A stretch of 64,000 bases of DNA from Escherichia coli. Lineage in GTDB: Bacteria; Pseudomonadota; Gammaproteobacteria; Enterobacterales; Enterobacteriaceae. Below are positions 42,594-64,000 of this stretch, piece by piece; position 1 is the first letter of the stretch, and every line of letters starts with the position of its first letter. The notes beneath the pieces were generated by a model. That model searched no databases, was not told where the DNA came from, and saw only the letters and a program-made list of their open reading frames with translations. Made by a program: the position numbers and the translations under genes. The stretch lies in NCBI RefSeq assembly GCF_045037415.1, contig NZ_CP173439.1; one strand, written 5' to 3'.

Positions 42594-42657
42594 CTTAAAA
42601 AACTGAACCGCCCCGGGAATCCTGGAGACTAAACTTCCTGAGAAAGAGGTAAACAGG

Positions 42658-43872: not shown

Positions 43873-43914
43873 GTTCACAGATAAAACACTCTCCAGGAAA
43901 CCCGGGGCGGTTCA

Positions 43915-44477: not shown

Positions 44478-45671
<1,194 letters not shown>

Positions 45672-46306: not shown

Positions 46307-46427
46307 CCCTACAACCTCTTGTTGTTATCAATCCTCATAGAGTGTGACAGAAATATGACATTTTTCCGGGAACGGTTTCGCAAAACGGGAGATTCCAGAA
46401 GATAACCGGCAGGTCAGCGTGTTCCGG

Positions 46428-46913
46428 TTACTCCGAGATAAAAACCTCATACTTAATATTGCGGGCGCAATAAAAAGTGCCGTCCGTCAGATACAGTTCA
46501 CGAAATCGCGTGTTATCAGAGATGTTGTCCAGCAGGGAACGTTCCGTATCGACAAATTCTTTTTGCACGCGGTAATGAACGGCGTTCTCCGTTTCAAAAG
46601 AGACATATTCCGTGGTGGCGTAGGGCTTATTTTTTGATTTCACGTACACGATATATTGCACGGTACTGGCCGTCAGCCCCGTTTTCGCCGCGATCTCTTT
46701 GAGACTCAACGTCTCAGAGGCATAAAGCGCCTGAACCTGCGCTATGCGTCGGTGATTATACGCCGTCACCCGAAGGCTCAGTTTCAGCCGATAGGCCATA
46801 TTCCGCACGGCGGTAATATTAGTGTGAAGCAGTTGCGCTATCTGCTCTGTCGTGAGGATGCCCGCGTTTTCCCGCAGAATCGCAAGGCTTTCGTCGTTCC
46901 AGATAAATGCCAT
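46428..46913 (-). CDS. hypothetical protein (possible HTH-containing)
   Basis: 161-aa ORF immediately downstream of the thioredoxin-like gene; no recognisable motif. Confidence 0.4.
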   Translation of the reverse strand: MAFIWNDESLAILRENAGILTTEQIAQLLHTNITAVRNMAYRLKLSLRVTAYNHRRIAQVQALYASETLSLKEIAAKTGLTASTVQYIVYVKSKNKPYATTEYVSFETENAVHYRVQKEFVDTERSLLDNISDNTRFRELYLTDGTFYCARNIKYEVFISE

Positions 46914-46937
46914 TGGGTATCTCTCCGTACGCGTCGT

Positions 46938-47423
46938 TCATCGCGCCGCCAGGCGCGCAAACGTGGCCTCTAACTCAGGCGGCTTACGCATACCCTGGTG
47001 TAGCTCCAGAACGCGTCCTTCGGAGTCAATCAGTACGGAGGTCGGCGTGCCGATCACCTGATAACGTTCCTGGGTAATGTTGAGCTGATCGCGCACCACC
47101 GGATAGGTTATCTGATGTTTTGCCAGCAGATCGTTGATCCTGACCGTTTCAGGGTCGGTATTGACCGCCACAACCACCACTTTATCGCCCCATTTTTTGC
47201 TCAGCGCTTCCAGCGTGTCCATTTCCGCCAGGCACCCCCCGCATCCCGCAGACCAAAAATTCAGGTACACCGCCTTTCCTTGCCAGCGTTCAAGGCCTGA
47301 CTCCTGGCCTTGCAGATCAAACGCCGCCAGCGCCGGGGCCGGTGCCCCGACCGCCAGCTTTTCTTCTTTACACCCGCTTATCAGGATCGCCGCCGCGAGT
47401 AACAGCACATTATGCCAGCGCAT
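46938..47423 (-). CDS. thioredoxin-like thiol:disulfide oxidoreductase (TlpA/ResA-like)
   Basis: Signal/anchor then WSAGCGGC CxxC motif; last gene of the fetMP-associated ABC operon. Confidence 0.7.
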   Translation of the reverse strand: MRWHNVLLLAAAILISGCKEEKLAVGAPAPALAAFDLQGQESGLERWQGKAVYLNFWSAGCGGCLAEMDTLEALSKKWGDKVVVVAVNTDPETVRINDLLAKHQITYPVVRDQLNITQERYQVIGTPTSVLIDSEGRVLELHQGMRKPPELEATFARLAAR

Positions 47424-48105
47424 GTTGATTGGCCTCCTCACCCAGATATTTACCGTGTTGCAGCCGCAGAATACGGTCGGCAAACTGCCCAAGCGCAGGG
47501 TTGTGCGTCACCATCACAATCGTGCGCCCCTGACGATGCAGATCGGTGAGCAGATCCAGCACCCGCTGCTCATTCTCTTCATCCAGGTTGCCCGTCGGTT
47601 CATCCGCGAAAATAACCGGCGGTTCGTTGACCAGCGCCCGGGCGATACACACACGCTGCTGCTCACCACCGGAAAGCTGGCTCGGCAGGTGCGTCACACG
47701 ATGCCCAAGCCCTACCTGTTCCAGCACCTTCCTCGCCGCCGCTTCATCCACCACGCTGTGGTAATGCTGGGCGAGCATGATGTTTTCCAGCGCAGTTAAG
47801 AACGGGATCAAATGGAACTGCTGAAATACCAGGCCGATTTTCTCGGCGCGAAAGCGACGGCGCCCCTCTTCATCCAGCGCGGCGGCATCGGTGCCATCAA
47901 GAAACACCTGCCCTTCCGTCGCCGTATCAAGGCACGTCAGAATATTCATCAGCGTGGTTTTACCAGAACCAGAAGCGCCCATAATGGCGACAAATTCACC
48001 CTGCGCAATGCGCAGATTAATGTCATCCAGGGCGGTAACGTCACCGAACCGTTTGTATAAGTGGCGGGTTTCGATCGCCACCTGAGGGATATGCGTAACG
48101 GACAT
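47410..48105 (-). CDS. ABC transporter ATP-binding protein (LolD/MacB-type)
   Basis: Walker [10 protein letters not shown], signature LSGGEQQR, Walker [12 protein letters not shown]. Confidence 0.85.
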
Positions 48106-48109
48106 GGCG

Positions 48110-49240
48110 CTACTCTCCTTTCAGCACTTTAGCAGGCTCGACGCTTACCGCGCGTCGCACCGGAACAATCGCCGCCAGAATGGCGACCAGTAAAGACAAC
48201 ACCAGAGTAATGGGCAACACCGGCAGACGCAGTGAAATGGCGGCATTAAACACCGTTAATCCCAACAGTTGCGCCAGCAAATATCCCAGCACCCAGCCGC
48301 ACGCCACCGCCGCCAGCGCGATGATGCTGGTTTCCAGCAGAATTTGCCGCACGATATCGCCGTTGCTGGAACCAAGCGCTTTTTGCAGCGCAAACTCGTG
48401 CGCCCGCTCGCCGACAATCGCCATCAGCGTGGTATTCACGCACAGCGAAGAGAGCGCCAGAATCACGATCGAGACCAGTCCCATCAGACCTTTAATTTTA
48501 TCCAGCACCTGCCCTTCGGAAGCAGAGACCTTACGCACCGGACGAATCTCCTGGTCAGGATACTGCGCCTGCAACCGGCTGGCATAGTTCTCCACCTGGC
48601 CGACATCGTTACTGACGCTCAGCAAGCCGTGGCTGATTTTGCCCGGCTGATGCAGCCAGGCCTGCGCCACGTCGAGGCTGACGATCAGCATGTTGTCCGT
48701 CGCATCGCCAGACTCCACAATGCCTTTAATCTGCAAATTCTTACGCTGATTGTGATCCACCAGCGTGATGCTGTCGCCCGGCTGCACGTTGAGGCGTTCC
48801 GCCAGTTTGACGCCGATCATCGCATTACGGTCGTCAAAACTGACGCCAATCCAGCTACCGGTGACCTGCCAGTACGGCACCAGTTTTTGCAGCGACTCGA
48901 ACCACACGCCAACCATCACCACTTTTTCCAGCTCGGTACGCGCCATGCCGTACAACCACGGACTGGCGCCATGCACCAGCCCCTGCGGCGCCTGATCGAG
49001 AATGCTCTGCAACTCCTGCTGCGGCATACTGGAACCGTGCCCCGGCCCGATGTAAAAATTCGCGCCGAAGGTGCGCAGTTCTTCGCTCATTTTGGTGTTA
49101 ATGTCGAACCAGACGGCAGAAAGCGCCGTCACGATGGTCGCCCCCACCATCAGCGCGGCAAACACCACGCTGACCCGCTGAAAACGCAGACGCAGCGCCC
49201 GCCACACCAGCAGCCAGAGCATGGTACGTTTAGCGGCCAT
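48110..49240 (-). CDS. ABC transporter permease, FtsX-like
   Basis: N-terminal TM, large periplasmic domain, C-terminal multi-TM bundle; start estimated at an internal Met. Confidence 0.7.
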   Translation of the reverse strand: MAAKRTMLWLLVWRALRLRFQRVSVVFAALMVGATIVTALSAVWFDINTKMSEELRTFGANFYIGPGHGSSMPQQELQSILDQAPQGLVHGASPWLYGMARTELEKVVMVGVWFESLQKLVPYWQVTGSWIGVSFDDRNAMIGVKLAERLNVQPGDSITLVDHNQRKNLQIKGIVESGDATDNMLIVSLDVAQAWLHQPGKISHGLLSVSNDVGQVENYASRLQAQYPDQEIRPVRKVSASEGQVLDKIKGLMGLVSIVILALSSLCVNTTLMAIVGERAHEFALQKALGSSNGDIVRQILLETSIIALAAVACGWVLGYLLAQLLGLTVFNAAISLRLPVLPITLVLSLLVAILAAIVPVRRAVSVEPAKVLKGE

Positions 49241-50513
49241 ACAGCACCTCCACAGGATACAGCCGGGCAATCCGCCGGGCCGGGAACCAGGTGCCGATCA
49301 ACGCAATCAGTACCGCAATCACCAGTACGCACGGCACCACAATCCAGGCAAAATTAAGCGGCGCGTCGAAGAGCATGACGCCAATCGCTTTCGCCAGCCC
49401 CCACCCGGCAATACATCCCAGCGCACCGCCAGCCAGCCCGCTGGACGCCGCTTCCAGGTAGAACAGCAGCATAATTTGCCACTGTCGCGCACCCAGCGCT
49501 TTCATCAAACCGATCTCTTTGGCGCGTTCCATAATGGTGCTGGTCATCAGCGAGGCGATCCCCATTGCGGAAGCCACCAGCGCCGCGACGGTAACGACCG
49601 CCATCAGCAACTGAATTTTATCGATCACCACCCCTTCGGACGCCGCGACCTGCCATACCGGGCGCACTTCCGCACCGGAAATCGCCTCTTCCAGCTGATG
49701 CGCGATCGACGACACATAGGCCGTGCAATACCAGAGGTCGTACTCTTCGGCATTGAGCGCGTCCAGGTTTTCCCGCGCGCGGCGGGACAGTTCGTTTTCC
49801 GGCACCGTCAGCGCCGAGACGCGAATCGCCTGCACTTTTCCGGGGAGCCCCAGCAGGTGCTGTACCGTGCTTAGCGGCATCACCAGTTGGTTATCTTCAT
49901 CGCCGCCGCTGGAGAGGATACCGCTGACGGTGACCTGCACTGCTTCGCCTTCGGTACGTAATGTCAGCTTATCACCGGGTTTCCAGCCCATTTGCCGCGC
50001 CAGCGCGTGCCCGACTAAGGTCTGCGGCTCTGCGCCTGCGGGTTCCTGCGGCCAGTCGCCGGTCACCTGCCAGTATGGGCTGACCGTTTTCTGCCCCGTC
50101 TCATATCCCTCTTCATCAGGAATATCCACTGGCTGACTGAAGAAAGTGCCCAGAATCCGCACTGGTTCTCCCTCCACGCTGGCTTCGCCGCCGAGCATCG
50201 GCGCAAACCCGACAATGTTGTTTCGCCAGAAGATATCTTTGATGTTCGGCAGCTCGGCTTCATCAAGAAAATCCTGACCGGAAAGCGGATTACTGCTCTC
50301 ACTAAACAGCGCGGGCAGCGCAGCCTGTCCGGCGGGTTCAATCAAAATGTTCGCACCATAAGACTTCAGCTCTCTGGACATTTTGTCGCCGATATCAATG
50401 GACACCGCCAGCAGCGCCGAGATCAGGCTGGAGGCCAGAAAAACGGTGATTATCGCCAGCACTTTGCGGCGTAAATTGCGCCCCCAGGATTGTCGTAACA
50501 TCCGCCACAGCAT
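49230..50513 (-). CDS. ABC transporter permease, FtsX-like
   Basis: 427 aa, same architecture as its neighbour. Confidence 0.75.
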   Translation of the reverse strand: MLWRMLRQSWGRNLRRKVLAIITVFLASSLISALLAVSIDIGDKMSRELKSYGANILIEPAGQAALPALFSESSNPLSGQDFLDEAELPNIKDIFWRNNIVGFAPMLGGEASVEGEPVRILGTFFSQPVDIPDEEGYETGQKTVSPYWQVTGDWPQEPAGAEPQTLVGHALARQMGWKPGDKLTLRTEGEAVQVTVSGILSSGGDEDNQLVMPLSTVQHLLGLPGKVQAIRVSALTVPENELSRRARENLDALNAEEYDLWYCTAYVSSIAHQLEEAISGAEVRPVWQVAASEGVVIDKIQLLMAVVTVAALVASAMGIASLMTSTIMERAKEIGLMKALGARQWQIMLLFYLEAASSGLAGGALGCIAGWGLAKAIGVMLFDAPLNFAWIVVPCVLVIAVLIALIGTWFPARRIARLYPVEVLYGR

Positions 50514-50515
50514 GA

Positions 50516-51895
50516 TTATTCCTCCCTCATGTCGGCAGGAACAAACTGCTCCGGCGTTTCACGGAAGCGTTCATAGTTAGCCTCTGACGAGAAGAACCAG
50601 GTCTTGCCGCCATAGCTGTATTTGTAATCGGCTGAGGTATTGGTCAACGTTGAACCATCGACCGGATCGGTCACTTTAATAGTCATGACCGTCGAGAAGT
50701 AGTTCACCCCTGTCGCCAGTTCTTTACCGGGGATCACCAGCTCTTTTTCATCATTGTGCCAGTTTTCAATCGGCACCGGGTTACAGCCACCGGCCTTGCC
50801 GATAGACGGAATAAAAATATGCACTCCGCAGGCGACGCAGATAACCTGATTGCCCTCCATGACATAACCCTGATCGCCGCACAGCAGGCAGGCGTCGAAC
50901 ACCACGCCAAAACGCAGCTTGTCGGGATAGCGGTTAATCACGAAGAAGCGCACCGCTTTGCCATCGTCCGCCACCCAGACGAAACGATGCAGTTTACCGT
51001 CACGAAGCTGTTCAACCGGCAGGCGCACCATGCCATCGCTCCCCAGCGTTACGGGCACGGCTTCAGAGAGTTGCGGCGGCTGCGAGGCCACTTTATCCCA
51101 CCACAGTTGGCCTGCGATAACGACCACCGCGCAGCCGATTGTGACCAACCACAGCCGCAAAGCGTTGCGACGCTGCGCCAGCGCCAGACGGTGAGCAATC
51201 GGTTCTTCGGTTTCCCGCGTCTGTCGAAAAGCCCGCAACAGCGCCGGAAGCCAGCACAGCGCCAGGGCCAGCAGCAGCGCGGCTCCCGTCCAGTTATACA
51301 GCGCCGTGTTATTTGTGACTTTCGCCACGAAGCTCAGCAGTGATTTTCCCAGCGGAACAACCTGTAATTTCATCAGCAACAACAGCAGGTTGCCGCTCAG
51401 CGGCAGCCAGATCATCACCAGCAGAATCAGCGTTAACGGCCAGTACAGGCCGCGAATACGCCGCAGCAGCATCGCGCAGAGTACGCCCGCCAGACAGAGG
51501 ATCGCAAAAGCGAGAACGACGGCCGTCAGGTTTAACAGCAGGTCAGTATTCAGCACATGCGTACTGGTCAGCCCGCCCAGATTAGGGTCCAGCGCCCAAT
51601 GGCGGGCAGCGCCGAAAATCAGAATCCCCTGCCACAGATAGCGGATACGCGTTGAAGCCCACCAGAAACTGAGGACAAACAGCAGCGATACCATGACCTC
51701 CGCCCCAACCAGCAGCAGTTGTACCGGTTGGCTGCCGTGAATAAACAGTCCCGCCAGCACGCCGGCAATCAGCCCGGTCAGCAGCGTCCAGGTCAGCGGA
51801 CGTAAAGAGGGAGGATCGTTTCGACTCCAGAGAACACCGGAAAGAAGCGCAATGCAGAAAAAGACCTGTAGCGTCGTGACGAAAAAGTAACTCAT
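50516..51895 (-). CDS. integral membrane protein with C-terminal Cys-rich/YHS-like domain (Cj1660-like)
   Basis: 459 aa; multiple TM helices; C-terminal CLLCGD...CVACG and KYSYGGKTWFFSSEANYERF. Confidence 0.55.
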   Translation of the reverse strand: MSYFFVTTLQVFFCIALLSGVLWSRNDPPSLRPLTWTLLTGLIAGVLAGLFIHGSQPVQLLLVGAEVMVSLLFVLSFWWASTRIRYLWQGILIFGAARHWALDPNLGGLTSTHVLNTDLLLNLTAVVLAFAILCLAGVLCAMLLRRIRGLYWPLTLILLVMIWLPLSGNLLLLLMKLQVVPLGKSLLSFVAKVTNNTALYNWTGAALLLALALCWLPALLRAFRQTRETEEPIAHRLALAQRRNALRLWLVTIGCAVVVIAGQLWWDKVASQPPQLSEAVPVTLGSDGMVRLPVEQLRDGKLHRFVWVADDGKAVRFFVINRYPDKLRFGVVFDACLLCGDQGYVMEGNQVICVACGVHIFIPSIGKAGGCNPVPIENWHNDEKELVIPGKELATGVNYFSTVMTIKVTDPVDGSTLTNTSADYKYSYGGKTWFFSSEANYERFRETPEQFVPADMREE

Positions 51896-51998
51896 AACTT
51901 CGACTCTGTACGGCGGGTTGAATTAAGCGACGGGCATATGATCGGTCTGACCAACGCGCCAGAAGGGGGAATCCTCCTGGCGCGTTGGTTAGTCGGTT

Positions 51999-52529
51999 TT
52001 AGTTCAGACCGACATATTTAAACTCGTAGCTCACATCAAACGGTTTCCACCAGCGGCCTACGCCTGTTTCGCTGTCAGTATGGCGATGCATCCCGGCTTT
52101 TGACGGCGGTTCAATGTGGTAGGTCACTTTATAGTTGCCCACGCCCATCATTTTGATGTTCGCGCCATAGTGCGGGCCATCGCTGGCAACCATCGGCATG
52201 AAGGTGCCTTCCTGTTTTTCGCCCGTGTCGTTGTTGACCAGGGTGTAGCTGATGGTCAGGTACGGGATCCATTCCCCTGCGCCAAAGCCGTTTTTATTGC
52301 CTTCTACAGCGTGGATATCCGCTTCAAGGTGAACATCGGCTTTTGCTGCCGGTAAGCCCATGCCGCGCGGTTCCATATCAATCGGTTGCAGGTAAACGGC
52401 CGCCAGCTCCATTTCATTCATGGTGACAGGCTCGCCTGCCGGGTACTCTTTAAAAGCAAACGCGGCTGGCGCAATGAAAATGCTGGCCATCACTGCGCTG
52501 GCAATCAGGGTTTTCTTCATGGTCATCAA
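51999..52529 (-). CDS. fetP: periplasmic iron transport protein FetP/P19 family
   Basis: 176 aa with signal peptide; size and position immediately after the FTR1-type permease match FetP/P19. Confidence 0.7.
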   Translation of the reverse strand: MMTMKKTLIASAVMASIFIAPAAFAFKEYPAGEPVTMNEMELAAVYLQPIDMEPRGMGLPAAKADVHLEADIHAVEGNKNGFGAGEWIPYLTISYTLVNNDTGEKQEGTFMPMVASDGPHYGANIKMMGVGNYKVTYHIEPPSKAGMHRHTDSETGVGRWWKPFDVSYEFKYVGLN

Positions 52530-52566
52530 ACGTATCCTCTCGTCTAAAACAACGGCTATACAACGA

Positions 52567-54513
52567 TTATGGGTTATTTTTTATCGTCTCCCCGGGAACC
52601 GCGCTTTTGCGCCGCATCACCCACAGCGCCACCAGCGCCGCGAGCAGCAATACGACCTGCGGTAACAACGTTTCCACGTAGGGATAAATCCCCAGCCAGC
52701 TGATTTCAGGGAAGCCGTTAATCAACGTAGGCTGGAACAGTTTGCCTTCCACCAGTTCCAGAACGCCTTTGCCCGCAAAGACGAAGGCCATCAGATACAT
52801 GAAACTGCCGGTAAACATAAAGAAGGGTTTCAGCGGCAGGCGCACTACTGAGTAACGCATCACCAGCCAGGCGAGCAGCAGCACCACGCAGCCAATCACA
52901 AAACCGGCGCCAATCGCCATATGGCCGGATACCGTGTTTGCATCGCCAATCAGAGCGTAATAGAACAGCACCGTTTCCGCCCCTTCGCGGTACACCGCCA
53001 GGAAGCTGGTCAGCCATAGTCCGACCAGGGAGCCTCGCGACAGGGAATGAGACAGTTTGCCTTCCAGCCAGGCTTTCCAGTGGCGCGCTTCCACTTTGGA
53101 CAGCAGCCAGTAACTCATAAAGAACAGCATCACGACGGCAATCAGCATCGTTATGCCTTCCAGCAGTTCACGGCTGGCGCCGGAGTTAGTAAACAGCATC
53201 TGGAAGATAGCGGCGGTGATGACGCTGGCGATCAGCGCCACAATTACCGACTGACGAATAAGCGGCAGCTTATCCTGATGGTTGTTTTTCACCATGTAGG
53301 CCACGATTGCCGCAACAATCAGCAGCGCTTCCAGCCCCTCGCGCACGATGATCATCAGACTATAGAGCAGCAGACTCCACTGGGTTTCTTCGCCTTCGCC
53401 CAGCATCGTCACGGCTTTTTGCAGATCCTGCGCCAGCGCGCTGGCCTCTGCATTCAGGCGCTCAACCGGCTGACCGGCCTTCATCAGACTGACCAAGCGG
53501 GTAAAATACGCCTCCAGCGTGGTTTTAAATGCCGAATCGCGAGAGCCGATTTTGTTTTCCATGCCGCTGGCTTCGAAGCGGTCGAAGTAGGTATCCTGGA
53601 TATCCAGAATCGCATTCTTCGCATCGCCGCCCTGATAGCGCGCTATCGCGTCCTGAATGCTCTGGTTAATTCCCGTCGTCACCTCAGCCCAGTCGGTGCG
53701 GTTATTTCCCTCGTCCGCCGCCGGAATGTTGTCTGCGCTTTGCGCTGCGGCAACCTGCTGATCGTCACGGGTGGTTGGCAAGCCGGGTAAGATATCCTCG
53801 ATATCCTGTAGCAGCGTAGTGACCTGATAGGAGACATCGTTGAGATGGTCAGGTTGCGCGGTCAGCGCAATCAGGGATGAGAATTGTTGGTTAATGGAGG
53901 CGGCATCTTTTGCAGAACGGTTTTGTCTGAGGGACATCTCCATCTCAGAGTTTTTAAAGCCCTGATAGTGCGCCTGTTGAACGTGCTGACTGGCAACGCT
54001 GTAATTCCCGGCCTGATATTCAGTGACCGCCTGCGCCAGCAGATCGTCGATCGTCCTGAAACTCTCCTGCCAGTGAACGGCAATGTCGTCCCTGGACAGC
54101 GCGTTGTGCTGCTCTTCGGCCACCAGACGATGTCCGCCATCCAGCACCGGTTCCACTTCGCGCAGTGCGGCTTTCAGCCAGTCAATGCGCGCCTGGACGT
54201 CAGCGAGCGGTTTTTTCTCGCCAATCATTCGACGGATCTCGCCGAATGCGCTCTCCATCTCGTAACTTTTGCGCGCGGAAATGTTGATGCGGATCGGCCC
54301 TTCCAGGTTCTCGAACACCTCAAAATAGGCCATTTGTACCGTGCGGCGCGCCTCGTCGGCATGCTGTTGCTGATAAAGTTCCGCTGTTTTATCAAGACGT
54401 TGCTCGATATCTTCAATCAAAGGCGCATAATTCGTCGACGCCCAGACACTCATGCTTATAAACAAGCCAAAGAGAGTAACCAACAAAGAGTTACGAAAGT
54501 TACGCACGTGCAC
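52567..54513 (-). CDS. fetM: FTR1-family iron permease with large N-terminal periplasmic domain (FetM-like)
   Basis: 648 aa; REGLEALLIVAAI (RExxE motif) in the C-terminal membrane domain; Fur box immediately upstream. Confidence 0.8.
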   Translation of the reverse strand: MHVRNFRNSLLVTLFGLFISMSVWASTNYAPLIEDIEQRLDKTAELYQQQHADEARRTVQMAYFEVFENLEGPIRINISARKSYEMESAFGEIRRMIGEKKPLADVQARIDWLKAALREVEPVLDGGHRLVAEEQHNALSRDDIAVHWQESFRTIDDLLAQAVTEYQAGNYSVASQHVQQAHYQGFKNSEMEMSLRQNRSAKDAASINQQFSSLIALTAQPDHLNDVSYQVTTLLQDIEDILPGLPTTRDDQQVAAAQSADNIPAADEGNNRTDWAEVTTGINQSIQDAIARYQGGDAKNAILDIQDTYFDRFEASGMENKIGSRDSAFKTTLEAYFTRLVSLMKAGQPVERLNAEASALAQDLQKAVTMLGEGEETQWSLLLYSLMIIVREGLEALLIVAAIVAYMVKNNHQDKLPLIRQSVIVALIASVITAAIFQMLFTNSGASRELLEGITMLIAVVMLFFMSYWLLSKVEARHWKAWLEGKLSHSLSRGSLVGLWLTSFLAVYREGAETVLFYYALIGDANTVSGHMAIGAGFVIGCVVLLLAWLVMRYSVVRLPLKPFFMFTGSFMYLMAFVFAGKGVLELVEGKLFQPTLINGFPEISWLGIYPYVETLLPQVVLLLAALVALWVMRRKSAVPGETIKNNP

Positions 54514-54528
54514 ACCGCCAAAGAATAC

Positions 54529-54547
54529 AAATGATAATTATTATCAT
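54529..54547 (-). promoter_or_regulatory. Fur box upstream of fetM
   Basis: AATGATAATTATTATCAT, one mismatch from the Fur core; lies 15-35 bp upstream of the annotated GTG start, so the true start or promoter geometry needs checking. Confidence 0.5.
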
Positions 54548-54799
54548 ATCTTTTTGTCGCGTTGTACATGACCTGGATCATAAAAATGTCAGCAGACGAC
54601 AAGTTATGTAAACTTATTTCATCAAATCGTGATGAACACACACATTATGCGTTGATAAAAGGGACGTTATCTCCCTGTTTTTCTCATGGAATTAACGGCA
54701 AGGCAGGCGCGGTAACAGAGGAATAAATCCCCCTGCCGACAGTGATATTATTCATTATCGGCAGGCAGAAATAAAACGCGTTATTGCGTACAGCAATAT

Positions 54800-55561
54800 T
54801 CAAAGATTAAGGTTATTTCGATCGCTGGCAAGACGCTGTAAGAATTGACCATATCCCTGCGGCCCCATCCAGTAGTTAATACTTTTCTCAACGCCGGTTG
54901 ATGTCAACGTCGCACCGGAAATACCGTCAACGGTATATTCATCGGCATGTTCAGGTTTATCCTGTACTATTTTCAATGCAGGATGTCCGCTGTTATCTAA
55001 TAATCGTTTCCCTGGCCACTGTTTGCGCCAGTTGGCGTCTTCCACCCTAGCCCCCAGAAACGGCGTTTCCCGTTGCTGATAATAATACAGATTTCTCACC
55101 GTACGACCGTCCAGCCCCAGAGCAAGAAACGCATGCATCATGGATTTCGCGCCCTTACCGGTAACTGGAATGATAACCTGCTGAATTTCATTATTTTTAT
55201 CTTTCACAAAGAACACATCCGCCACCGTACAGCGCTGACGAACCTGCGCTGGGTCGCGTTCAGGGGCAAGTTTTTCACACTTCTGCCGCGCGGTGTCCGC
55301 GCTGCTGCCAGCCACCAGTTCGCCGGAATCTAAATTAACATGGCGTTGAATAATATAACGATGATAGAGCGTTTCGACTGATTTTTTATCCTGGGTCTCT
55401 GATTTCATCAGGCCCGCAGCGTGTAAAATTGCCGCCTGTTTTTCCTCCTCTGTCGGCTCCGTCATTTCTCCCTGGAACAGCATAAACCATGCCGCCGCCG
55501 CAACAAAAATAAGGACACAAAGCACCATCATTGATGCAACAATAATTTTACCCTTGCGCAT
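54800..55561 (-). CDS. FMN-binding domain membrane protein (NqrC/RnfG-like)
   Basis: Membrane anchor then a domain with the conserved GISGATLTS motif; start estimated at an internal Met. Confidence 0.55.
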   Translation of the reverse strand: MRKGKIIVASMMVLCVLIFVAAAAWFMLFQGEMTEPTEEEKQAAILHAAGLMKSETQDKKSVETLYHRYIIQRHVNLDSGELVAGSSADTARQKCEKLAPERDPAQVRQRCTVADVFFVKDKNNEIQQVIIPVTGKGAKSMMHAFLALGLDGRTVRNLYYYQQRETPFLGARVEDANWRKQWPGKRLLDNSGHPALKIVQDKPEHADEYTVDGISGATLTSTGVEKSINYWMGPQGYGQFLQRLASDRNNLNL

Positions 55562-55797
55562 TGAATTGTTATCCCTGTCAAAATGGAAATCGAAAAAATC
55601 GCCTGAACGTATCACAGACTTTCATTCAATTAAAACAGATATGCCATTATCAATTCAGGTTTGCAACGTCAGGCAGCGGTAAAAAATAATAACTGGCGTC
55701 GGTAAAAAAGCAGCAAAAATAACAGAAAACACGCTCTCCGCTCGTTTTACACATCCTTACAATGGGTTAAAAAATGCCGGGTTTCCCCGGCACGCTA

Positions 55798-56304
55798 TCA
55801 AAACATGGCTGCCCGCCACAGACGTAACTTCATGCCCCAGTAGCTGGTCCAGCCGCTGGTCGTAGTTACCACCTGCCCCTTCGACACCACCACCAGCGTT
55901 GGCGTGACGCTGATTTCCCAGTTTCGTGATATCTCACCGCCGCTATCATTCACGACGGGGAACGTCACCCTTTTACGCGATAACCAGCGGGAAACCTCCC
56001 CGTCATTACCGGAACGCAGCGCGATGGTCATGACGCTCTCCCCTTCCGACTGCAAACGGGCGACATCCGGCGTGGTGAAACGGCAGATACCGCACCAGCT
56101 CGCCCAGAAGTAGAGCAGCACCGGGCGTTCTTCACTGATCGACGCCAGCGTTACGGTTTCCCCGTCCAGCGTATGCAGCGGCGTGCTGTCAAACATGGCC
56201 GGCATCTGCGGAGAACGCCAGACATCCAGCAGGATTATCACGCCAGCCAGCAGAACCAGTAAGATCGCGCCTTCACGCAGCCAGCGGCGCAGTTTACTGA
56301 GCAT
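55798..56304 (-). CDS. scsD: thiol:disulfide interchange protein ScsD-like (TlpA family)
   Basis: 168 aa; membrane anchor and WASWCGICR CxxC motif; sits directly after an ScsC-like fragment. Confidence 0.65.
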   Translation of the reverse strand: MLSKLRRWLREGAILLVLLAGVIILLDVWRSPQMPAMFDSTPLHTLDGETVTLASISEERPVLLYFWASWCGICRFTTPDVARLQSEGESVMTIALRSGNDGEVSRWLSRKRVTFPVVNDSGGEISRNWEISVTPTLVVVSKGQVVTTTSGWTSYWGMKLRLWRAAMF

Positions 56305-56464
56305 GGGCCACCGCCAGTTTTTCTTTCACCACCGCCTCAAGGGTCTCCCACGATACCGCGCCGGGGATCATCTCGTCGCCAATGATGGTTGCCGGCGTCC
56401 CCTGAACGCCAACCAGCCGGGCGAGTTGCAGATTGGTGCTCAACGTCTCCATGCTTTTCTCATC
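56294..56464 (-). pseudogene. scsC: DsbA-like ScsC, C-terminal fragment only
   Basis: ...GVQGTPATIIGDEMIPGAVSWETLEAVVKEKL is a DsbA-family C-terminus; the 5' part is replaced at the 38-bp repeat at 56465. Confidence 0.5.
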
Positions 56465-56503
56465 GGGGTCAGTTTGGATATAGAGAATTATTGTACTATA
56501 AGG
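56465..56503. repeat. 38-bp Tn3-family-like terminal repeat copy (GGGGTCAGTTTGGATATAGAGAATTATTGTACTATAAG)
   Basis: 38 bp from GGGG to TAAG; forms the junction that truncates scsC. Confidence 0.5.
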
Positions 56504-56757
56504 GCTTCCCCGGCATGTCAACGCCGGTGTTTACGGTTTCTGTCTGCACTATAGTAAAAAAATAAAGGGGAGAGACTGCGGTACTATAAACGGTCATGAT
56601 GAATCGTCATCGATTCGGACCCTGATGAAAGACGCTCGTGAGGCTCTAGTTCGTTAGTCGGGTACACTTGCCCTGTACAATAAGCAGATATACCTCACGG
56701 GGTCTAACCCTTTATCATCAACGAGTTGCAGATCAGATGGTCATACAGCTTTGTACT

Positions 56758-57071
56758 TTAGCTGGCTGAGTACAACCTGAAATCATCACCGTAATGCAAT
56801 GATGCCCAGCACAGTCTTGCATTTTTGGCAGCGATGGCAACAACAGCGCGCCAGTATCCTCTGCGTTCGACCAGTGAGCAGACCCAACGACTGAATAAAT
56901 CAGTCCTTTTCTCCGCCCCGATCAGTACCGAGCGGGCACCCTGAACCAGAAGTGTTCTCAGATACGAATCGCCAGCTTTCGTTATCCTGCCAAGCTTCGA
57001 CTTTCCGCCGCTGCTGTACTGCGATGGTGTCAGTCCCAGCCAGGCTGCCAGCTGGCGCCCATTCTTAAAAT
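56758..57071 (-). pseudogene. IS110/IS1111-family transposase (IS4321/IS5075-like), C-terminal fragment cut by IS26
   Basis: ...NGRQLAAWLGLTPSQYSSGGKSKLGRITKAGDSYLRTLLVQGARSVL is the conserved IS110-family C-terminus; reading frame enters the IS26 IR. Confidence 0.6.
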
Positions 57072-57891
57072 GGCACTGTTGCAAAGTTAGCGATGAGGCA
57101 GCCTTTTGTCTTATTCAAAGGCCTTACATTTCAAAAACTCTGCTTACCAGGCGCATTTCGCCCAGGGGATCACCATAATAAAATGCTGAGGCCTGGCCTT
57201 TGCGTAGTGCACGCATCACCTCAATACCTTTGATGGTGGCGTAAGCCGTCTTCATGGATTTAAATCCCAGCGTGGCGCCGATTATCCGTTTCAGTTTGCC
57301 ATGATCGCATTCAATCACGTTGTTCCGGTACTTAATCTGTCGGTGTTCAACGTCAGACGGGCACCGGCCTTCGCGTTTGAGCAGAGCAAGCGCGCGACCA
57401 TAGGCGGGCGCTTTATCCGTGTTGATGAATCGCGGGATCTGCCACTTCTTCACGTTGTTGAGGATTTTACCCAGAAACCGGTATGCAGCTTTGCTGTTAC
57501 GACGGGAGGAGAGATAAAAATCGACAGTGCGGCCCCGGCTGTCGACGGCCCGGTACAGATACGCCCAGCGACCATTGACCTTCACGTAGGTTTCATCCAT
57601 GTGCCACGGGCAAAGATCGGAAGGGTTACGCCAGTACCAGCGCAGCCGTTTTTCCATTTCAGGCGCATAACGCTGAACCCAGCGGTAAATCGTGGAGTGA
57701 TCGACATTCACTCCGCGTTCAGCCAGCATCTCCTGCAGCTCACGGTAACTGATGCCGTATTTGCAGTACCAGCGTACGGCCCACAGAATGATGTCACGCT
57801 GAAAATGCCGGCCTTTGAATGGGTTCATGTGCAGCTCCATCAGCAAAAAGGGATGATAAGTTTATCACCACCGACTATTTGCAACAGTGCC
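57072..57891 (-). mobile_element. IS26, complete, 820 bp
   Basis: GGCACTGTTGCAAA terminal repeats at both ends; intact tnp26. Confidence 0.95.
57124..57828 (-). CDS. tnpA: IS26 transposase Tnp26
   Basis: MNPFKGRHFQRDIILWAVRWYCKYGISYRELQEMLAERGVNVDHSTIYRWVQRYAPEMEKRLRWYWRNPSDL... (234 aa from the internal Met). Confidence 0.95.
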   Translation of the reverse strand: MNPFKGRHFQRDIILWAVRWYCKYGISYRELQEMLAERGVNVDHSTIYRWVQRYAPEMEKRLRWYWRNPSDLCPWHMDETYVKVNGRWAYLYRAVDSRGRTVDFYLSSRRNSKAAYRFLGKILNNVKKWQIPRFINTDKAPAYGRALALLKREGRCPSDVEHRQIKYRNNVIECDHGKLKRIIGATLGFKSMKTAYATIKGIEVMRALRKGQASAFYYGDPLGEMRLVSRVFEM

Positions 57892-59064
57892 ATTCTGAGC
57901 ACTGTCGCGCTCGACGCTGTCGGCATCGGCCTGATTATGCCGGTGCTGCCGGGCCTCCTGCGCGATCTGGTTCACTCGAACGACGTCACCGCCCACTATG
58001 GCATTCTGCTGGCGCTGTATGCGTTGATGCAATTTGCCTGCGCACCTGTGCTGGGCGCGCTGTCGGATCGTTTCGGGCGGCGGCCGGTCTTGCTCGTCTC
58101 GCTGGCCGGCGCTGCTGTCGACTACGCCATCATGGCGACGGCGCCTTTCCTTTGGGTTCTCTATATCGGGCGGATCGTGGCCGGCATCACCGGGGCGACT
58201 GGGGCGGTAGCCGGCGCTTATATTGCCGATATCACTGATGGCGATGAGCGCGCGCGGCACTTCGGCTTCATGAGCGCCTGTTTCGGGTTCGGGATGGTCG
58301 CGGGACCTGTGCTCGGTGGGCTGATGGGCGGTTTCTCCCCCCACGCTCCGTTCTTCGCCGCGGCAGCCTTGAACGGCCTCAATTTCCTGACGGGCTGTTT
58401 CCTTTTGCCGGAGTCGCACAAAGGCGAACGCCGGCCGTTACGCCGGGAGGCTCTCAACCCGCTCGCTTCGTTCCGGTGGGCCCGGGGCATGACCGTCGTC
58501 GCCGCCCTGATGGCGGTCTTCTTCATCATGCAACTTGTCGGACAGGTGCCGGCCGCGCTTTGGGTCATTTTCGGCGAGGATCGCTTTCACTGGGACGCGA
58601 CCACGATCGGCATTTCGCTTGCCGCATTTGGCATTCTGCATTCACTCGCCCAGGCAATGATCACCGGCCCTGTAGCCGCCCGGCTCGGCGAAAGGCGGGC
58701 ACTCATGCTCGGAATGATTGCCGACGGCACAGGCTACATCCTGCTTGCCTTCGCGACACGGGGATGGATGGCGTTCCCGATCATGGTCCTGCTTGCTTCG
58801 GGTGGCATCGGAATGCCGGCGCTGCAAGCAATGTTGTCCAGGCAGGTGGATGAGGAACGTCAGGGGCAGCTGCAAGGCTCACTGGCGGCGCTCACCAGCC
58901 TGACCTCGATCGTCGGACCCCTCCTCTTCACGGCGATCTATGCGGCTTCTATAACAACGTGGAACGGGTGGGCATGGATTGCAGGCGCTGCCCTCTACTT
59001 GCTCTGCCTGCCGGCGCTGCGTCGCGGGCTTTGGAGCGGCGCAGGGCAACGAGCCGATCGCTGA
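57892..59064 (+). pseudogene. tetA: tet(A) class A tetracycline efflux gene, 5'-truncated by IS26
   Basis: From the IS26 junction the frame reads ILSTVALDAVGIGLIMPVLPGLLRDLVHSNDVTAHYGILLALYALMQFACAPVLGALSDRFGRRP...; about 10 N-terminal codons, the start codon and tetR are absent. Confidence 0.85.
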
Positions 59065-59095: not shown

Positions 59096-59856
59096 TCAAG
59101 GCGACTTCCGGCAAGCTATACGCGCCCTAGGAGTGCGGTTGGAACGTTGGCCCAGCCAGATACTCCCGATCACGAGCAGGACGCCGATGATTTGAAGCGC
59201 ACTCAGCGTCTGATCCAAGAACAACCATCCTAGCAACACGGCGGTCCCCGGGCTGAGAAAGCCCAGTAAGGAAACAACTGTAGGTTCGAGTCGCGAGATC
59301 CCCCGGAACCAAAGGAAGTAGGTTAAACCCGCTCCGATCAGGCCGAGCCACGCCAGGCCGAGAACATTGGTTCCTGTAGGCATCGGGATTGGCGGATCAA
59401 ACACTAAAGCTACTGGAACGAGCAGAAGTCCTCCGGCCGCCAGTTGCCAGGCGGTAAAGGTGAGCAGAGGCACGGGAGGTTGCCACTTGCGGGTCAGCAC
59501 GGTTCCGAACGCCATGGAAACCGCCCCCGCCAAGCCCGCTGCGACGCCGACAGGATCTAGCGCTGCGTTTGGTGTCAACACCAACAGCGCCACGCCCGCA
59601 GTTCCGCAAATAGCCCCCAGGACCGCCATCAATCGTATCGGGCTACCTAGCAGAGCGGCAGAGATGAACACGACCATCAGCGGCTGCACAGCGCCTACCG
59701 TCGCCGCGACCCCGCCCGGCAGGCGGTAGACCGAAATAAACAACAAGCTCCAGAATAGCGAAATATTAAGTGCGCCGAGGATGAAGATGCGCATCCACCA
59801 GATTCCCGTTGGAATCTGTCGGACGATCATCACGAGCAATAAACCCGCCGGCAACG
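59096..59856 (-). pseudogene. EamA/DMT transporter (PecM-like, Tn1721-associated), 5'-truncated by IS1
   Basis: 252-aa hydrophobic ORF downstream of and convergent with tet(A), as in Tn1721; N-terminal part replaced by the IS1 end. Confidence 0.6.
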
Positions 59857-59871
59857 GGTAATGACTCCAAC

Positions 59872-60375
59872 TTATTGATAGTGTTTTATGTTCAGATAAT
59901 GCCCGATGACTTTGTCATGCAGCTCCACCGATTTTGAGAACGACAGCGACTTCCGTCCCAGCCGTGCCAGGTGCTGCCTCAGATTCAGGTTATGCCGCTC
60001 AATTCGCTGCGTATATCGCTTGCTGATTACGTGCAGCTTTCCCTTCAGGCGGGATTCATACAGCGGCCAGCCATCCGTCATCCATATCACCACGTCAAAG
60101 GGTGACAGCAGGCTCATAAGACGCCCCAGCGTCGCCATAGTGCGTTCACCGAATACGTGCGCAACAACCGTCTTCCGGAGCCTGTCATACGCGTAAAACA
60201 GCCAGCGCTGGCGCGATTTAGCCCCGACGTATCCCCACTGTTCGTCCATTTCCGCGCAGACGATGACGTCACTGCCCGGCTGTATGCGCGAGGTTACCGA
60301 CTGCGGCCTGAGTTTTTTAAATGGCGGAAAATCGTGTTGAGGCCAACGCCCATAATGCGGGCGGTTGCCCGGCAT
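59872..60375 (-). CDS. insB: IS1 InsB
   Basis: 167-aa ORF matching IS1 InsB. Confidence 0.9.
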
Positions 60376-60569
60376 CCAACGCCATTCATGGCCATATCAA
60401 TGATTTTCTGGTGCGTACCGGGTTGAGAAGCGGTGTAAGTGAACTGCAGTTGCCATGTTTTACGGCAGTGAGAGCAGAGATAGCGCTGATGTCCGGCGGT
60501 GCTTTTGCCGTTACGCACCACCCCGTCAGTAGCTGAACAGGAGGGACAGCTGATAGAAACAGAAGCCAC
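60294..60569 (-). CDS. insA: IS1 InsA
   Basis: 91 aa, [43 protein letters not shown]... Confidence 0.9.
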
Positions 60570-60624
60570 TGGAGCACCTCAAAAACACCATCATACACTA
60601 AATCAGTAAGTTGGCAGCATCACC

Positions 60625-61059
60625 CACTTTCTCCTGCCAGAGACGCCGGATATCCTTTTCATCCCGACCAGTCAGTTTTTTACCGGACAGCAGACGGTTA
60701 AGCAGTTCCTGTCTCGCATCCGGTACGTCTTCAGTCAGACGCATAAGCCGGAGTAATTCCTGACGACTGAGTACCATGCGTGATTCCTCCGGTACGCTGT
60801 AATAATTAAAAATACGACTGAATACCCCACAACAGCAGGCAACGGACAGGCACAGGGATTTCAGATACAGGCCAGAAACACAGAATGTGGCAACACCACA
60901 AAGAATAGCTATAACTAAAAATCCCTTACCCAGTGCCATACACAAAGAACCCTGTTTTCTGGATATCCGCTCATGCTCATCCAGAATAAAATCTATTTTT
61001 TCATTTTCTGATTTATGCATAGTGTTTCCTCTGCCTTTCCTGATACGCCTGACATTCAA
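60625..61059 (-). pseudogene. hypothetical tra-region protein, 3' end replaced by IS1
   Basis: ORF 60598..61059; its last 8 codons (GDAANLLI*) are encoded by the IS1 terminal repeat. Confidence 0.4.
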
Positions 61060-61234
61060 CGCACAACGTCACACCGGGAAATATTTTCCGCCGGGCTTCC
61101 GGAATAGGATTTCCGCATGCTTCACAGAGATAAACAGGAATACCATGAGCATTTATTTTCTGGCGTATCCGGTTTATTCCTGTCATGGTCAGTTGTTCTG
61201 TTACTGAATATGCTTCATCGGCTTCATCACTCAC
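61013..61234 (-). CDS. traR: TraR (DksA-like zinc-finger protein)
   Basis: 73 aa with CxxC...CxxC zinc finger; matches F TraR as recalled. Confidence 0.85.
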   Translation of the reverse strand: MSDEADEAYSVTEQLTMTGINRIRQKINAHGIPVYLCEACGNPIPEARRKIFPGVTLCVECQAYQERQRKHYA

Positions 61235-61368
61235 GGAATATTCCTCCCGACATGTTCTGACACGCTACCGCCCATCCCTTTTCACGCACAGGGCACTCGT
61301 TTTACAGGCAGATTTTGAATACAGAAAGCCCGCCGGCATTGCCGGCTGATATACAACTTCAGGGCCAG

Positions 61369-61884
61369 TTAATTAATACGTGGTTTTCCCCACGCAGACG
61401 GTTTAATAACAAAAAACACACTGGATGGTTGATGATAAACATCCTGATTATCAATATAAGGCGCTATCCATAATGCTGCCGTCTGCTCACCCGTTCTTAG
61501 CGGGCGGGGAGGTGTTACCGACGCAACTGAACTGACCGGAATAATCGTTTTCACTTCCCGGGCAGCCGTAAACAACGGACGTGGTGCCAGCAGTTTCTGC
61601 TCCGGAAGTGCAGTCACAGCAGGCCTGCTGCGGGACGGCGTTGTCGCCGCAACGGCCTGCACCGACGTGGTCCGGAAGTTCCCGTCAGCCAGGCGCGGCA
61701 GTGATGCCGCAGCCGGCTTTGCTTCTGAGGACTGCTCCAGTTTTTTGGCCTTCTCATTGGCCTGCTCCATAGTCATACAGGTATCGGATGTGGTGGCATC
61801 ACACTCAAAATCGGAGTTCGTTCCGGCACAGCCGGAAAGTAATAACGTCCCCAGCAGCGGAATAAATAAAGAAATCTGTTTCAT
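61369..61884 (-). CDS. traV: TraV lipoprotein (type IV secretion outer-membrane component)
   Basis: 171 aa; lipoprotein signal LLLSGCAG; F-operon position between trbG and traR. Confidence 0.85.
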   Translation of the reverse strand: MKQISLFIPLLGTLLLSGCAGTNSDFECDATTSDTCMTMEQANEKAKKLEQSSEAKPAAASLPRLADGNFRTTSVQAVAATTPSRSRPAVTALPEQKLLAPRPLFTAAREVKTIIPVSSVASVTPPRPLRTGEQTAALWIAPYIDNQDVYHQPSSVFFVIKPSAWGKPRIN

Positions 61885-62132
61885 TGTCCCTCACCTTTCT
61901 CATCGCAGTTCACAAAATCATTCTTCAAATCCCTGACCGTACAGTTTTTTACAATGTCAGGATTTTCAAAAACCGTATTCCGTGATGATTTATAAACATA
62001 TGCCACAATGCGTTCTTCCCCCGCATCAGCTTCTGGTGCACTGACTTCACATAACGGAGGTGTTATTCCGGACTCATACAGCACCGGATAATTTATTTTT
62101 TTGACGCTGCCATCAGAAACCAGCTTATTCAT
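61881..62132 (-). CDS. trbG: TrbG
   Basis: 83-aa ORF at the F-operon position between trbD and traV. Confidence 0.7.
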   Translation of the reverse strand: MNKLVSDGSVKKINYPVLYESGITPPLCEVSAPEADAGEERIVAYVYKSSRNTVFENPDIVKNCTVRDLKNDFVNCDEKGEGQ

Positions 62133-62481
62133 CGAAGGGTTCCTTATATTTCTGAATAATTCTGTCGATTAGTTCTTTCACCGGAACAGATTTTCCGCCA
62201 CCGGATTGTCCGGCAACCACAATATGCCCCGGAGAAGAAAATAAACGCATCGACATTCCCTCCTTCATCACACCGACAGCAGCCATATTAAAATTGTGCG
62301 GCAATGATTCAGAACCGAATTTCTTCAGTGCAGGAAGAACTATCCTTGTGGTGCAGTTACTGAGAACAGCATGCATAAAATCATCTGATACGTTTTTATC
62401 CGGCACAGCGCGGGCAGTAATAACATTAATATTACGCATGTTCATTTTTATCTCCGTTGCTTCTGTTTGTTCTGTCATCAT
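62125..62481 (-). CDS. trbD: TrbD-like protein (start uncertain)
   Basis: ORF at the trbD position between traP and trbG; longer than F TrbD as recalled, so the true start may be internal. Confidence 0.45.
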   Translation of the reverse strand: MMTEQTEATEIKMNMRNINVITARAVPDKNVSDDFMHAVLSNCTTRIVLPALKKFGSESLPHNFNMAAVGVMKEGMSMRLFSSPGHIVVAGQSGGGKSVPVKELIDRIIQKYKEPFDE

Positions 62482-63022
62482 GGAAATAAACAGGGCATTT
62501 CCTGATTTTTTCCGGCAGGGAAGCGTCTTCCGTATAAACTTCCTTCAGATGTTCATCTGCGGTTCCCACCCGGACACATTTCATTTTTCCGGGCCACATC
62601 GGATATTTCCCGGTGCCTGCCGCAAACGACATATACATCAGTGCCAGCGTTGCCCAGAATGCGGTGACCAGTTGCATCAGTGACCGGTCAGTCTCCCTGA
62701 CATAATCTGCAGCATCAGCCGCGCGGTAATGGCAGATATCCTGTATTTCTGATCTGCCTGAAGAATCAGAGGAAGAAAACCAGCATTCACTGACCGGGAA
62801 CTGTCCGGCAGGTGCTGTTTGTCTTACGAAGTTAATCTCCTTAACCAGTAATTTCCCCGGCGTGGTGTTGTCCTTCCATAAAACAAACAGAGCCATCAGG
62901 GCCATTGTGGCCAGTGGCAGAATGACGGTGTACTTCAGACACCAGAACAGTCCTCGCAGAACCCGGGCGACAACATACCGGGCGGCATGGCACGCCTGAC
63001 GGGACGACATATTATTTGCCAT
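62432..63022 (-). CDS. traP: TraP
   Basis: 196-aa membrane protein at the F-operon position after traB; length matches F TraP. Confidence 0.8.
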   Translation of the reverse strand: MANNMSSRQACHAARYVVARVLRGLFWCLKYTVILPLATMALMALFVLWKDNTTPGKLLVKEINFVRQTAPAGQFPVSECWFSSSDSSGRSEIQDICHYRAADAADYVRETDRSLMQLVTAFWATLALMYMSFAAGTGKYPMWPGKMKCVRVGTADEHLKEVYTEDASLPEKIRKCPVYFHDDRTNRSNGDKNEHA

Positions 63023-64000
63023 CGTTGCCTCCTCCCTGGCTGCCGGACATAAACTGCTGCGGATTCAGGTTGCCCAGCTGCTTCAGCATCTGGTCAGTAT
63101 TAAAGCCGTTAAGATGACTTTCAGCTGATGGCGGAACAGGAACCGGACTTTCCGGATTATCTTCTTCCGCTCTGTTCTGCGTGCGCTCCAGCGCCATCTC
63201 TTCCACGGTTTTCAGCTGGAAGCCGTCCTGGAACACCACGGTCACTTCGTTGCCCGCACCAATCGGTATCACCGGGTGATACTGTTCGGCACGTTTGATG
63301 TAGTAGTCACTGAGCGTCTGTGCGGCTTTCGATGCGCCGCCACCGATACCCATTTTCAGGACATCACCAGCCCCGTAAGCGGCTGTGGCACCCAGCCCGA
63401 CAGCCGGCTGGGAGGCGCGCTCCATTCCCTGACCGATACCGTCAACAAATCCCGCGCCCCATGCCCAGCCGAGGATTTTGCCGTTACGCATCACCACTTC
63501 GCCCTTGATACCGTTTTTACCCCGGAAGCTGACATGCCCCTTAATCGGCATATCAATAGTTTTGCCGTCCTTCAGGCAACTGATATTGCGGGTGCGTACA
63601 ATGGCACGCTCACTGGACACATCCCCCCAGGCTTCCAGCCCCACAAAACATCCCGTTGCGTCATACGTCTTGCTGTTCGGCATTTCCACCAGGCCGGTGA
63701 TACGCAACTGCATCGGCACCGTGGATTCATTACCGGTGACTGAGGCATTGGCATCCGCCCCTTCAATCAGCATGGCTTTCGCAAAACTTCCTGACGGAAT
63801 GTACGGCAGCGATGTTCCCTGTTTTCCCTCATTACGGGTAAACACCTTACGCTGTATCCGGTTAGGCACCGGCACAGACTGGTACGTCACCTGTGGTGGT
63901 GGCGTGACACCATTCCCGGGATAAAACGCCGTCGGCGGTGGAACAGCAACGCTGCCCTGCGGCGGGAAGGATACGGGGGTGTTTCCTGGCTGTGGTTCGC
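63012..64000 (-). CDS. traB: TraB (VirB10-like), 5' end beyond the window
   Basis: Open frame to the window edge; Gly-rich C-terminal domain; followed by traP as in F. Confidence 0.85.
   Translation of the reverse strand, partial: EPQPGNTPVSFPPQGSVAVPPPTAFYPGNGVTPPPQVTYQSVPVPNRIQRKVFTRNEGKQGTSLPYIPSGSFAKAMLIEGADANASVTGNESTVPMQLRITGLVEMPNSKTYDATGCFVGLEAWGDVSSERAIVRTRNISCLKDGKTIDMPIKGHVSFRGKNGIKGEVVMRNGKILGWAWGAGFVDGIGQGMERASQPAVGLGATAAYGAGDVLKMGIGGGASKAAQTLSDYYIKRAEQYHPVIPIGAGNEVTVVFQDGFQLKTVEEMALERTQNRAEEDNPESPVPVPPSAESHLNGFNTDQMLKQLGNLNPQQFMSGSQGGGNDGK

Follow-up and report, generated by a model that had tools for sequence, protein, structure and literature searches.

A probable IS1 adjacent deletion that joins yfhA to a resistance-region scar and accounts for the absence of distal tra genes and the IncFII replicon from an Escherichia coli IncF virulence plasmid sequence

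INTRODUCTION

Deletions adjacent to IS1 are a classical part of the biology of this insertion sequence (IS), as known from Tn9 and the R100 r-determinant. In such an event the IS and one of its flanks are retained, the other end comes to abut a distal site without a change of orientation, the contiguous DNA in between is lost, and no 9-bp target duplication is produced. Here we analyze a 64,000-bp stretch of Escherichia coli plasmid DNA (contig NZ_CP173439.1; this whole stretch is called the window) in which an F-like transfer (tra) operon is cut by IS1 downstream of traR, within the small open reading frame (ORF) yfhA. The window shows no essential difference from the classical IS1 adjacent deletion, and the only oddity is that its end-point coincides with that of an apparently independent event in plasmid pEK516.

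Mobile-element-associated partial loss of tra DNA from otherwise stable IncF virulence or resistance plasmids is also found in pEC958, the E. coli U1 plasmid, NZ_CP069461.1, and pEK499, with elements and extents that differ from those in the window. pEC958, which could not be transferred, is missing trbI-traW-traU alone. In the U1 plasmid (NZ_CP041358.1; L004, 7352-8521), a divergent IS1 with 93% identity replaces the DNA from traC to the 5' part of traU, and in NZ_CP069461.1 (39270-59266) an IS5 stands in place of the proximal traM...traN genes while trbE-traX/finO are kept, a defect that mirrors the one in the window. In pEK499 (L012, 3301-4876), a truncated blaTEM lies at the side of the left inverted repeat (IRL) of the nuc-linked IS1 found in the pC15-1a lineage; this plasmid and the U1 plasmid are further cases of rearrangement at the IRL side of IS1 in tra regions. 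Independent tra decay appears to be common in the plasmid family to which the window and NZ_CP069461.1 belong.

A different kind of event is found close to the site studied here. In pSTEC173 (CP060110.1), an IS1 lies in the traR-traC spacer in the same orientation as in the window, but it is a simple insertion, about 150 bp downstream of the position in the window, and is flanked by a 9-bp target site duplication (TSD; tgcattctt). traC, trbI, traW, traU, and trbC continue past this IS1, and the plasmid is typed as conjugative with a MOBF relaxase.

RESULTS

IS1 truncates yfhA between traR and traC

In the intact conjugative IncF plasmid pRHBSTW-00177_5 (CP056798.1), which is 100% identical to positions 60624-64000 of the window, traR is followed by a 158-aa yfhA, by two small ORFs of 72 and 115 aa, and then by traC. 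In the window, codons 1 to 132 of yfhA are kept (60625-61020), the break falls 396 bp past the yfhA start, and the 26 C-terminal codons are lost. The reading frame continues instead into the IRL of IS1 for eight codons, encoding GDAANLLI, and a stop codon, all of which come from the first 27 bases of IS1 (GGTGATGCTGCCAACTTACTGATTTAG, 60598-60624). The longest reading of this chimeric ORF is 60598-61059 (153 aa); its start is most likely the ATG at 61020, as annotated in relatives, which gives a product of 140 aa rather than 153 aa. YfhA, which is named YfhA or YafA depending on the source, falls in a cluster that has 945 members at 90% identity and has no match to any Pfam or NCBIfam family, while exact-protein look-ups of the 140-aa and 153-aa forms of the chimeric ORF returned no match. 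Beside the absence of traC-traI, the truncation of YfhA itself is of no importance.

A first-pass annotation of this DNA had described a tra operon cut by IS1 directly after traR, with an ORF ending in the IS1 terminal repeat in place of traC. The last eight codons of this ORF are indeed IS1 sequence, and the position given for the start of the tra DNA, 60625, is exact, as the IRL ends at 60624 with an ambiguity of 1 bp. The cut itself lies within yfhA, however, and the ORF is no novel product but consists of the first 132 codons of a conserved gene with the IS1 codons added.

The distal tra genes and the IncFII replicon are absent from the window

The first-pass annotation had proposed to inspect the rest of the plasmid for traC to traI; across the window, neither blastn nor tblastn found any of these genes. 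When the traC...finO...repA2 segment of pRHBSTW-00177_5 was compared with the 64 kb by blastn, the only match was retained yfhA, over 255 bp. A tblastn search of the 64 kb (E<=1e-3) likewise gave no match to any of 33 proteins encoded by the distal tra region and IncFII backbone of this plasmid, or to any of 14 proteins of a second relative (TraC, TraD, TraI, FinO, Nuc, Hha, RepA-FII, PemI/K, DUF262, and others). The genes without a blastn or tblastn match in the 64 kb include those for the TraC ATPase, trbI, traW, traU, trbC, traN, traF, traH, and traG, and the TraD coupling protein and TraI relaxase/helicase of both relatives likewise gave no tblastn match there. The rest of the window holds no second transfer system.

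Probable origin by deletion adjacent to IS1

The element at the break is an IS1 by its 768-bp length, its terminal inverted repeats, and its insA and insB' frames, and it is present once in the window. It has no 9-bp target duplication (flanks, ccggcaacg and cactttctc), as expected if the present flanks arose by deletion or recombination and not by simple insertion. At its right inverted repeat (IRR), it cuts the 5' end of pecM, and this pecM-IS1 junction is identical in NZ_CP029104.1, CP056803.1, and others; the tet(A)-pecM-IS1 junction is thus old and shared. What lies on the IRL side of the same junction varies, being DUF262-pemKI-repA in one of NZ_CP029104.1 and CP056803.1 and Tn3 in the other.

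The order from which the window could have been derived is seen in NZ_CP029104.1, where a single strand carries tet(A), pecM, IS1, DUF262, pemK, pemI, repA(FII), hha, nuc, finO, traX, traI, traD...traC, and traR...traM, with 35.5 kb between the IS1 IRL and traR. The closest relative of the window backbone, NZ_CP069461.1, is 100% identical to it across positions 39001-57891 and shares its IS26 boundary; beyond this come accessory DNA, FII remnants, finO, traX, and traI on the same strand, an arrangement which places the missing block exactly at the present IS1 site. Relative to IS1, the tra DNA that remains in the window points the same way as in the ancestral order.

The pecM flank is therefore conserved, a far backbone site is joined to IS1 in unchanged orientation, and the intervening block is absent; together with the lack of a 9-bp duplication, this is the classical signature of an adjacent deletion. 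We consider it likely that the IS1 at the edge of the Tn1721-derived resistance region caused a one-sided adjacent deletion of the backbone beside its IRL. The starting order would have been tet(A)-pecM-IS1-DUF262-pemK/pemI-repA(IncFII)-hha-nuc-finO-traX-traI-traD...traC-two small ORFs-yfhA-traR-traV...traM. From there IS1 would have transposed intramolecularly and replicatively into yfhA, a process in which the IS is kept and no target duplication is made, so that the IRL became joined to yfhA codon 132 with IS1 and its pecM flank unchanged. The contiguous block lost in this way would have been about 36-37 kb, that is, the 35.5 kb found in NZ_CP029104.1 plus the extra small ORFs, and would have comprised DUF262, pemIK, the whole IncFII replicon, hha, nuc, finO, and all of the tra genes between traC and traX, both included. 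Of the conceivable deletion chemistries, intramolecular transposition is the most probable. Adjacent deletion of this kind is an ordinary, well-documented route by which IncF plasmids lose self-transfer, and the window is one further case of a known pattern.

pEK516 carries the same junction on a different background

The IS1-yfhA junction has one close counterpart. A 600-bp junction query found pEK516 (NC_013121.1 / EU935738) as the sole carrier among 72,556 plasmids, there was no true match to the junction in 5,426 complete RefSeq E. coli genomes, and a 33-mer junction pattern gave 0 matches in JGI metagenome contigs and 0 in GTDB genome contigs. The chimeric protein of pEK516 was found in one further assembly (GCA_900448495.1). 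Another candidate, pMS20673A, matches up to the IS1 end, but its IS1 lies in an unrelated tet(B) context and is uninformative.

pEK516 is reportedly the CTX-M-15 IncF plasmid of UK E. coli sequence type 131 (ST131) of Woodford et al. 2009. It is described as usually non-conjugative and is typed without a relaxase. Its junction between the IS1 IRL and yfhA is base-identical to that of the window (...gcagcatcacc/cactttctcctgcc, with the slash marking the junction), with IS1 in the same orientation, and both plasmids are cut after ...GAGAAAGTG/G. Like the window, pEK516 has a chimeric ORF of 132 yfhA codons followed by GDAANLLI and a stop, and it has lost traC-traX and finO.

The two plasmids differ on both sides of this junction. 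In pEK516 the IS1 donor is the copy upstream of nuc, whose nuc-IRR flank is common to 47 plasmids and which in pC15-1a is a simple insertion with the TSD aatggcacc; this nuc-linked IS1 carries A/G at two diagnostic positions, compared to G/T in the window and NZ_CP029104.1. pEK516 also keeps nuc-hha-repA(FII), which the window has lost. Its tra DNA is the pC15-1a allele without trbG, and each of its proximal Tra proteins shares its accession with the pC15-1a counterpart. The window carries trbG on the CP056798.1 allele, and its traB is about 92% identical to that of pEK516. Common descent of the two truncations is not supported, since the IRR flank and the tra lineage differ, the two IS1 copies differ at 2 single-nucleotide polymorphisms (SNPs), and yfhA differs at 5 SNPs within 97 bp of the junction, leaving only the junction position as a shared feature.

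The simplest reading of these comparisons is that two independent IS1 deletions appear to have ended at the same base. As two IS1 copies and two tra lineages share one IRL-side end base, yfhA codon 132 may be a genuine preferred IS1 target, a proposal that we put forward tentatively. The target, GTGGATGC, and the end of IS1, GGTGATGC, agree at 6/8 positions, and early Tn9/IS1 work is said to have reported target homology to IS1 ends, which we take as a lead only. Two other conceivable causes of a hot spot were not found, as the AT content around the target is not high (45% within +/-20-50 bp) and no site matching the integration host factor (IHF) consensus WATCAANNNNTTR with up to 1 mismatch occurs within +/-120 bp of it.

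Alternative explanations for the junction

Several points weigh against an adjacent deletion as the full account. Sequence alone cannot tell intramolecular transposition from IS1 x IS1 recombination, since both end in an identical structure. The evidence is confined to the 64-kb window, so that relocated distal tra genes or a second IS1 outside it are formally possible, and the join across the IS1 repeat rests on the assembly rather than on reads. The transfer defect of the plasmid is likewise a prediction from its sequence.

The alternative that survives best is a two-step route, in which a simple IS1 insertion in yfhA was followed by RecA-dependent recombination with the directly oriented IS1 at pecM, the same ancestral insertion having also given rise to pEK516. 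Its product would equal the observed structure, and it would account for a pEK516 junction that matches that of the window to the base. The two IS1 SNPs (60229 and 60232) that split the window/NZ_CP029104.1 type from the pEK516/pC15-1a type lie mid-element, and a crossover to the right of them would be traceless. However, a simple IS1 insertion at the yfhA site was seen in none of the 72,556 plasmids, none of the 5,426 complete E. coli genomes, and none of the metagenome and GTDB contig scans. The yfhA alleles beside the junction also differ, the nearest of the 5 differences being 33 bp away, with the window matching CP056798.1 and pEK516 matching pC15-1a. With different yfhA alleles and different tra lineages, distinguished by trbG and by traB, a single ancestral insertion fits the window and pEK516 poorly, and we regard the two-step route as unlikely.

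Far less probable is an assembly artefact in which two IS1 copies were collapsed and a segment of ~37 kb with the FII and distal-tra DNA was dropped. As a 768-bp repeat, IS1 exceeds short reads, such joins are a classic source of mis-assembly, and the window itself offers no test of the IS1 join. Even under such a collapse, however, the IS1-yfhA junction would stay real and the tra operon would still be interrupted; moreover, the same kind of deletion is found in the independently sequenced pEK516 and GCA_900448495.1, and the window has one IS1 only and no orphan FII or tra fragments.

Least credible of all is that the distal tra DNA was moved by IS1 inversion or translocation, or excised as an IS1-FII-traC..traX circle that became a second replicon, with transfer functions then still supplied in cis from elsewhere or in trans: the block would carry its own IncFII replicon and pemIK and could in principle replicate, and the rest of the replicon and the cell lies outside the window, but the tra DNA still present lies in the orientation to IS1 expected of a deletion, which rules out an inversion, an excised block would be without the PY promoter and oriT, and there is no positive sign of a relocated block, the complete plasmid pEK516 being simply without these genes. 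A microhomology-mediated deletion through the shared GATGC was also ruled out, as the full IS1 terminus GGT-GATGC is present at the junction.

Other breaks in yfhA

Other truncated forms of YfhA were considered as possible IS1 junctions and rejected. In 21 contigs (L017 4375-4501, L018, and L019), a sequence starting CTGATGAATCCCCTAATGATTTTGG interrupts yfhA after codon 126, at a point lying upstream of the IS1 site by 18 bp; we take this sequence to be the outside end of IS10. The 126-aa form would then reflect a second IS type truncating yfhA, and its junction is of the IS10 type instead of a further IS1 break. These contigs, pSTEC173, and the U1 plasmid show that other elements strike the traR-traC spacer as well. 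The forms of 131 and 137 aa stem from tandem duplication of yfhA, as carried by some F-like plasmids (L004 9313-9726; L015/L016 4001-4880), where the first copy breaks near the same place (...LWQE/K), and the 137-aa form ends with the TraR C terminus (QRKHYA/V). These observations suggest that the yfhA break point is also a recombination or module boundary.

Features of the retained tra region, the scar, and the rest of the window

The minus strand of positions 60625-64000 carries the 3' part of traB followed by traP, trbD, trbG, traV, and traR in F order (Table 1), which bears out the gene content, order, and strand given in the first-pass annotation. Gene identities were assigned with NCBIfam equivalog models, for which all six genes score above the curated cut-offs, with Pfam as second support. 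The first ~147 codons of traB are beyond base 64000, traA/L/E/K are positioned past the window end, and oriT with traM/traY/traJ is presumably kept upstream of traB, also beyond base 64000.

TABLE 1 Coordinates of features in the 64,000-bp window
Feature	Position	Strand	Support or description
RepFIB (RepB family initiator)	19118-20095		
IS26, 820 bp	57072-57891	-	ORF of 240 aa; matches annotated IS26 in pEK516 and NZ_CP069461.1
tet(A), truncated	57892-59064	+	NCBIfam tet_MFS_A, E 4e-263, profile positions 9-394
pecM, truncated (EamA-family transporter of Tn1721)	59096-59856	-	Pfam EamA; TIGR00950 match from profile position 27
IS1, 768 bp	59857-60624	-	768/768 identical to annotated copies in NZ_CP029104.1 and CP056803.1
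IS1 IRR, GGTAATGACTCCAACTTATTGAT	59857-59879	-	Inverted repeat, ~23 bp, imperfect
insB'	59872-60375	-	ORF of 167 aa
insA	60294-60569	-	91 aa
Chimeric ORF yfhA'::IS1	60598-61020	-	Alignment with intact yfhA of pRHBSTW-00177_5 and pC15-1a
IS1 IRL, GGTGATGCTGCCAACTTACTGAT	60602-60624	-	Inverted repeat, ~23 bp, imperfect
traR (DksA/TraR zinc-finger protein)	61013-61234	-	NCBIfam NF010268, E 4e-54
traV (lipoprotein)	61369-61884	-	NCBIfam NF010293, E 1e-85; Pfam TraV
trbG	61881-62132	-	NCBIfam NF010307 TrbG, E 4e-56
trbD	62125-62481	-	NCBIfam NF010282 TrbD, E 1e-69
traP	62432-63022	-	NCBIfam NF010299, E 1e-105; Pfam TraP, E 2e-88
traB, 3' two-thirds	63012 to window end (64000)	-	NCBIfam NF010289, E 7e-201, profile positions 148-474 of 474; Pfam TrbI

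On the other side of IS1, the resistance region has shrunk to a 3.5-kb scar of IS26, truncated tet(A), truncated pecM, and IS1. The tet remnant that had been noted beside IS1 is therefore present, and can be refined to a truncated pecM and a tet(A) that is cut at its 5' end by IS26, itself single-copy in the window. Codons 10-399 of tet(A) are kept at 100% identity, the first 9 codons and the promoter are missing, and tetR has no tblastn match in the window. Located 39 nt into IS26, an in-frame ATG is supplied by the end of the element (57853-59064, plus strand), and a fusion of MISLSPPTICNSA to Tet(A) residues 10-399 could conceivably be made from it, without tetR. None of the best plasmid matches covered the exact IS26-tet(A) junction in one piece.

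The remainder of the window is a typical FIA/FIB virulence backbone of extraintestinal pathogenic E. coli (ExPEC), with ccdAB-resD, RepFIB, a haem receptor, cjrABC-senB, and iron-transport loci. The window begins inside the RepFIA maintenance region (1-1124), with resD at 318-1124 followed by ccdB/ccdA. As there is no IncFII replicon in the window, the plasmid would type as F-:A+:B+. An IS21-like element of 2,132 bp is present in two direct copies (10297-12428 and 28848-30979) that are 99.86% identical and bracket about 16 kb including RepFIB, which makes the pair a potential substrate for deletion or amplification.

DISCUSSION

The genes traC, traW, traU, traN, traF, traH, traG, traD, and traI encode essential F transfer functions. 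With no traC, trbI, traW, traU, trbC, traN, traF, traH, or traG, no pilus or mating-pair apparatus would be made, and with no traD or traI the DNA would be neither processed nor coupled. Judged by established F-plasmid genetics, the plasmid should thus not be self-transmissible, and the conjugation defect put forward in the first-pass annotation is supported as an expected consequence within the 64 kb, both by the absence of essential genes and by the precedents of pEK516 and pEC958. At best, the plasmid could be mobilized by a co-resident F-like helper with a cognate relaxosome.

Other consequences can be predicted from the functions of the missing genes. Loss of finO would probably derepress the remnant operon, which would be transcribed into IS1 in the direction of insA, and loss of traS/traT is expected to remove surface exclusion. 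Loss of repA-FII and pemIK is expected to leave maintenance to the FIA/FIB replicons, and the loss of IncFII is predicted to change the incompatibility make-up of the plasmid.

The window is a further example of the well-known decay of tra regions through IS activity in ExPEC IncF plasmids, and the mildly unexpected part is the end-point that it shares with pEK516. If yfhA codon 132 is a true hot spot, a sequence-specific IS1 target would in part direct the loss of distal tra genes from ExPEC IncF plasmids, with selection against costly conjugation perhaps favoring such losses. The 3.5-kb resistance scar is of use in typing plasmids and in judging the risk of transfer. For the host, the prediction is that this virulence plasmid, with senB/cjrABC, iron-uptake loci, and FIA/FIB replicons, would be locked in its lineage unless a helper mobilizes it.

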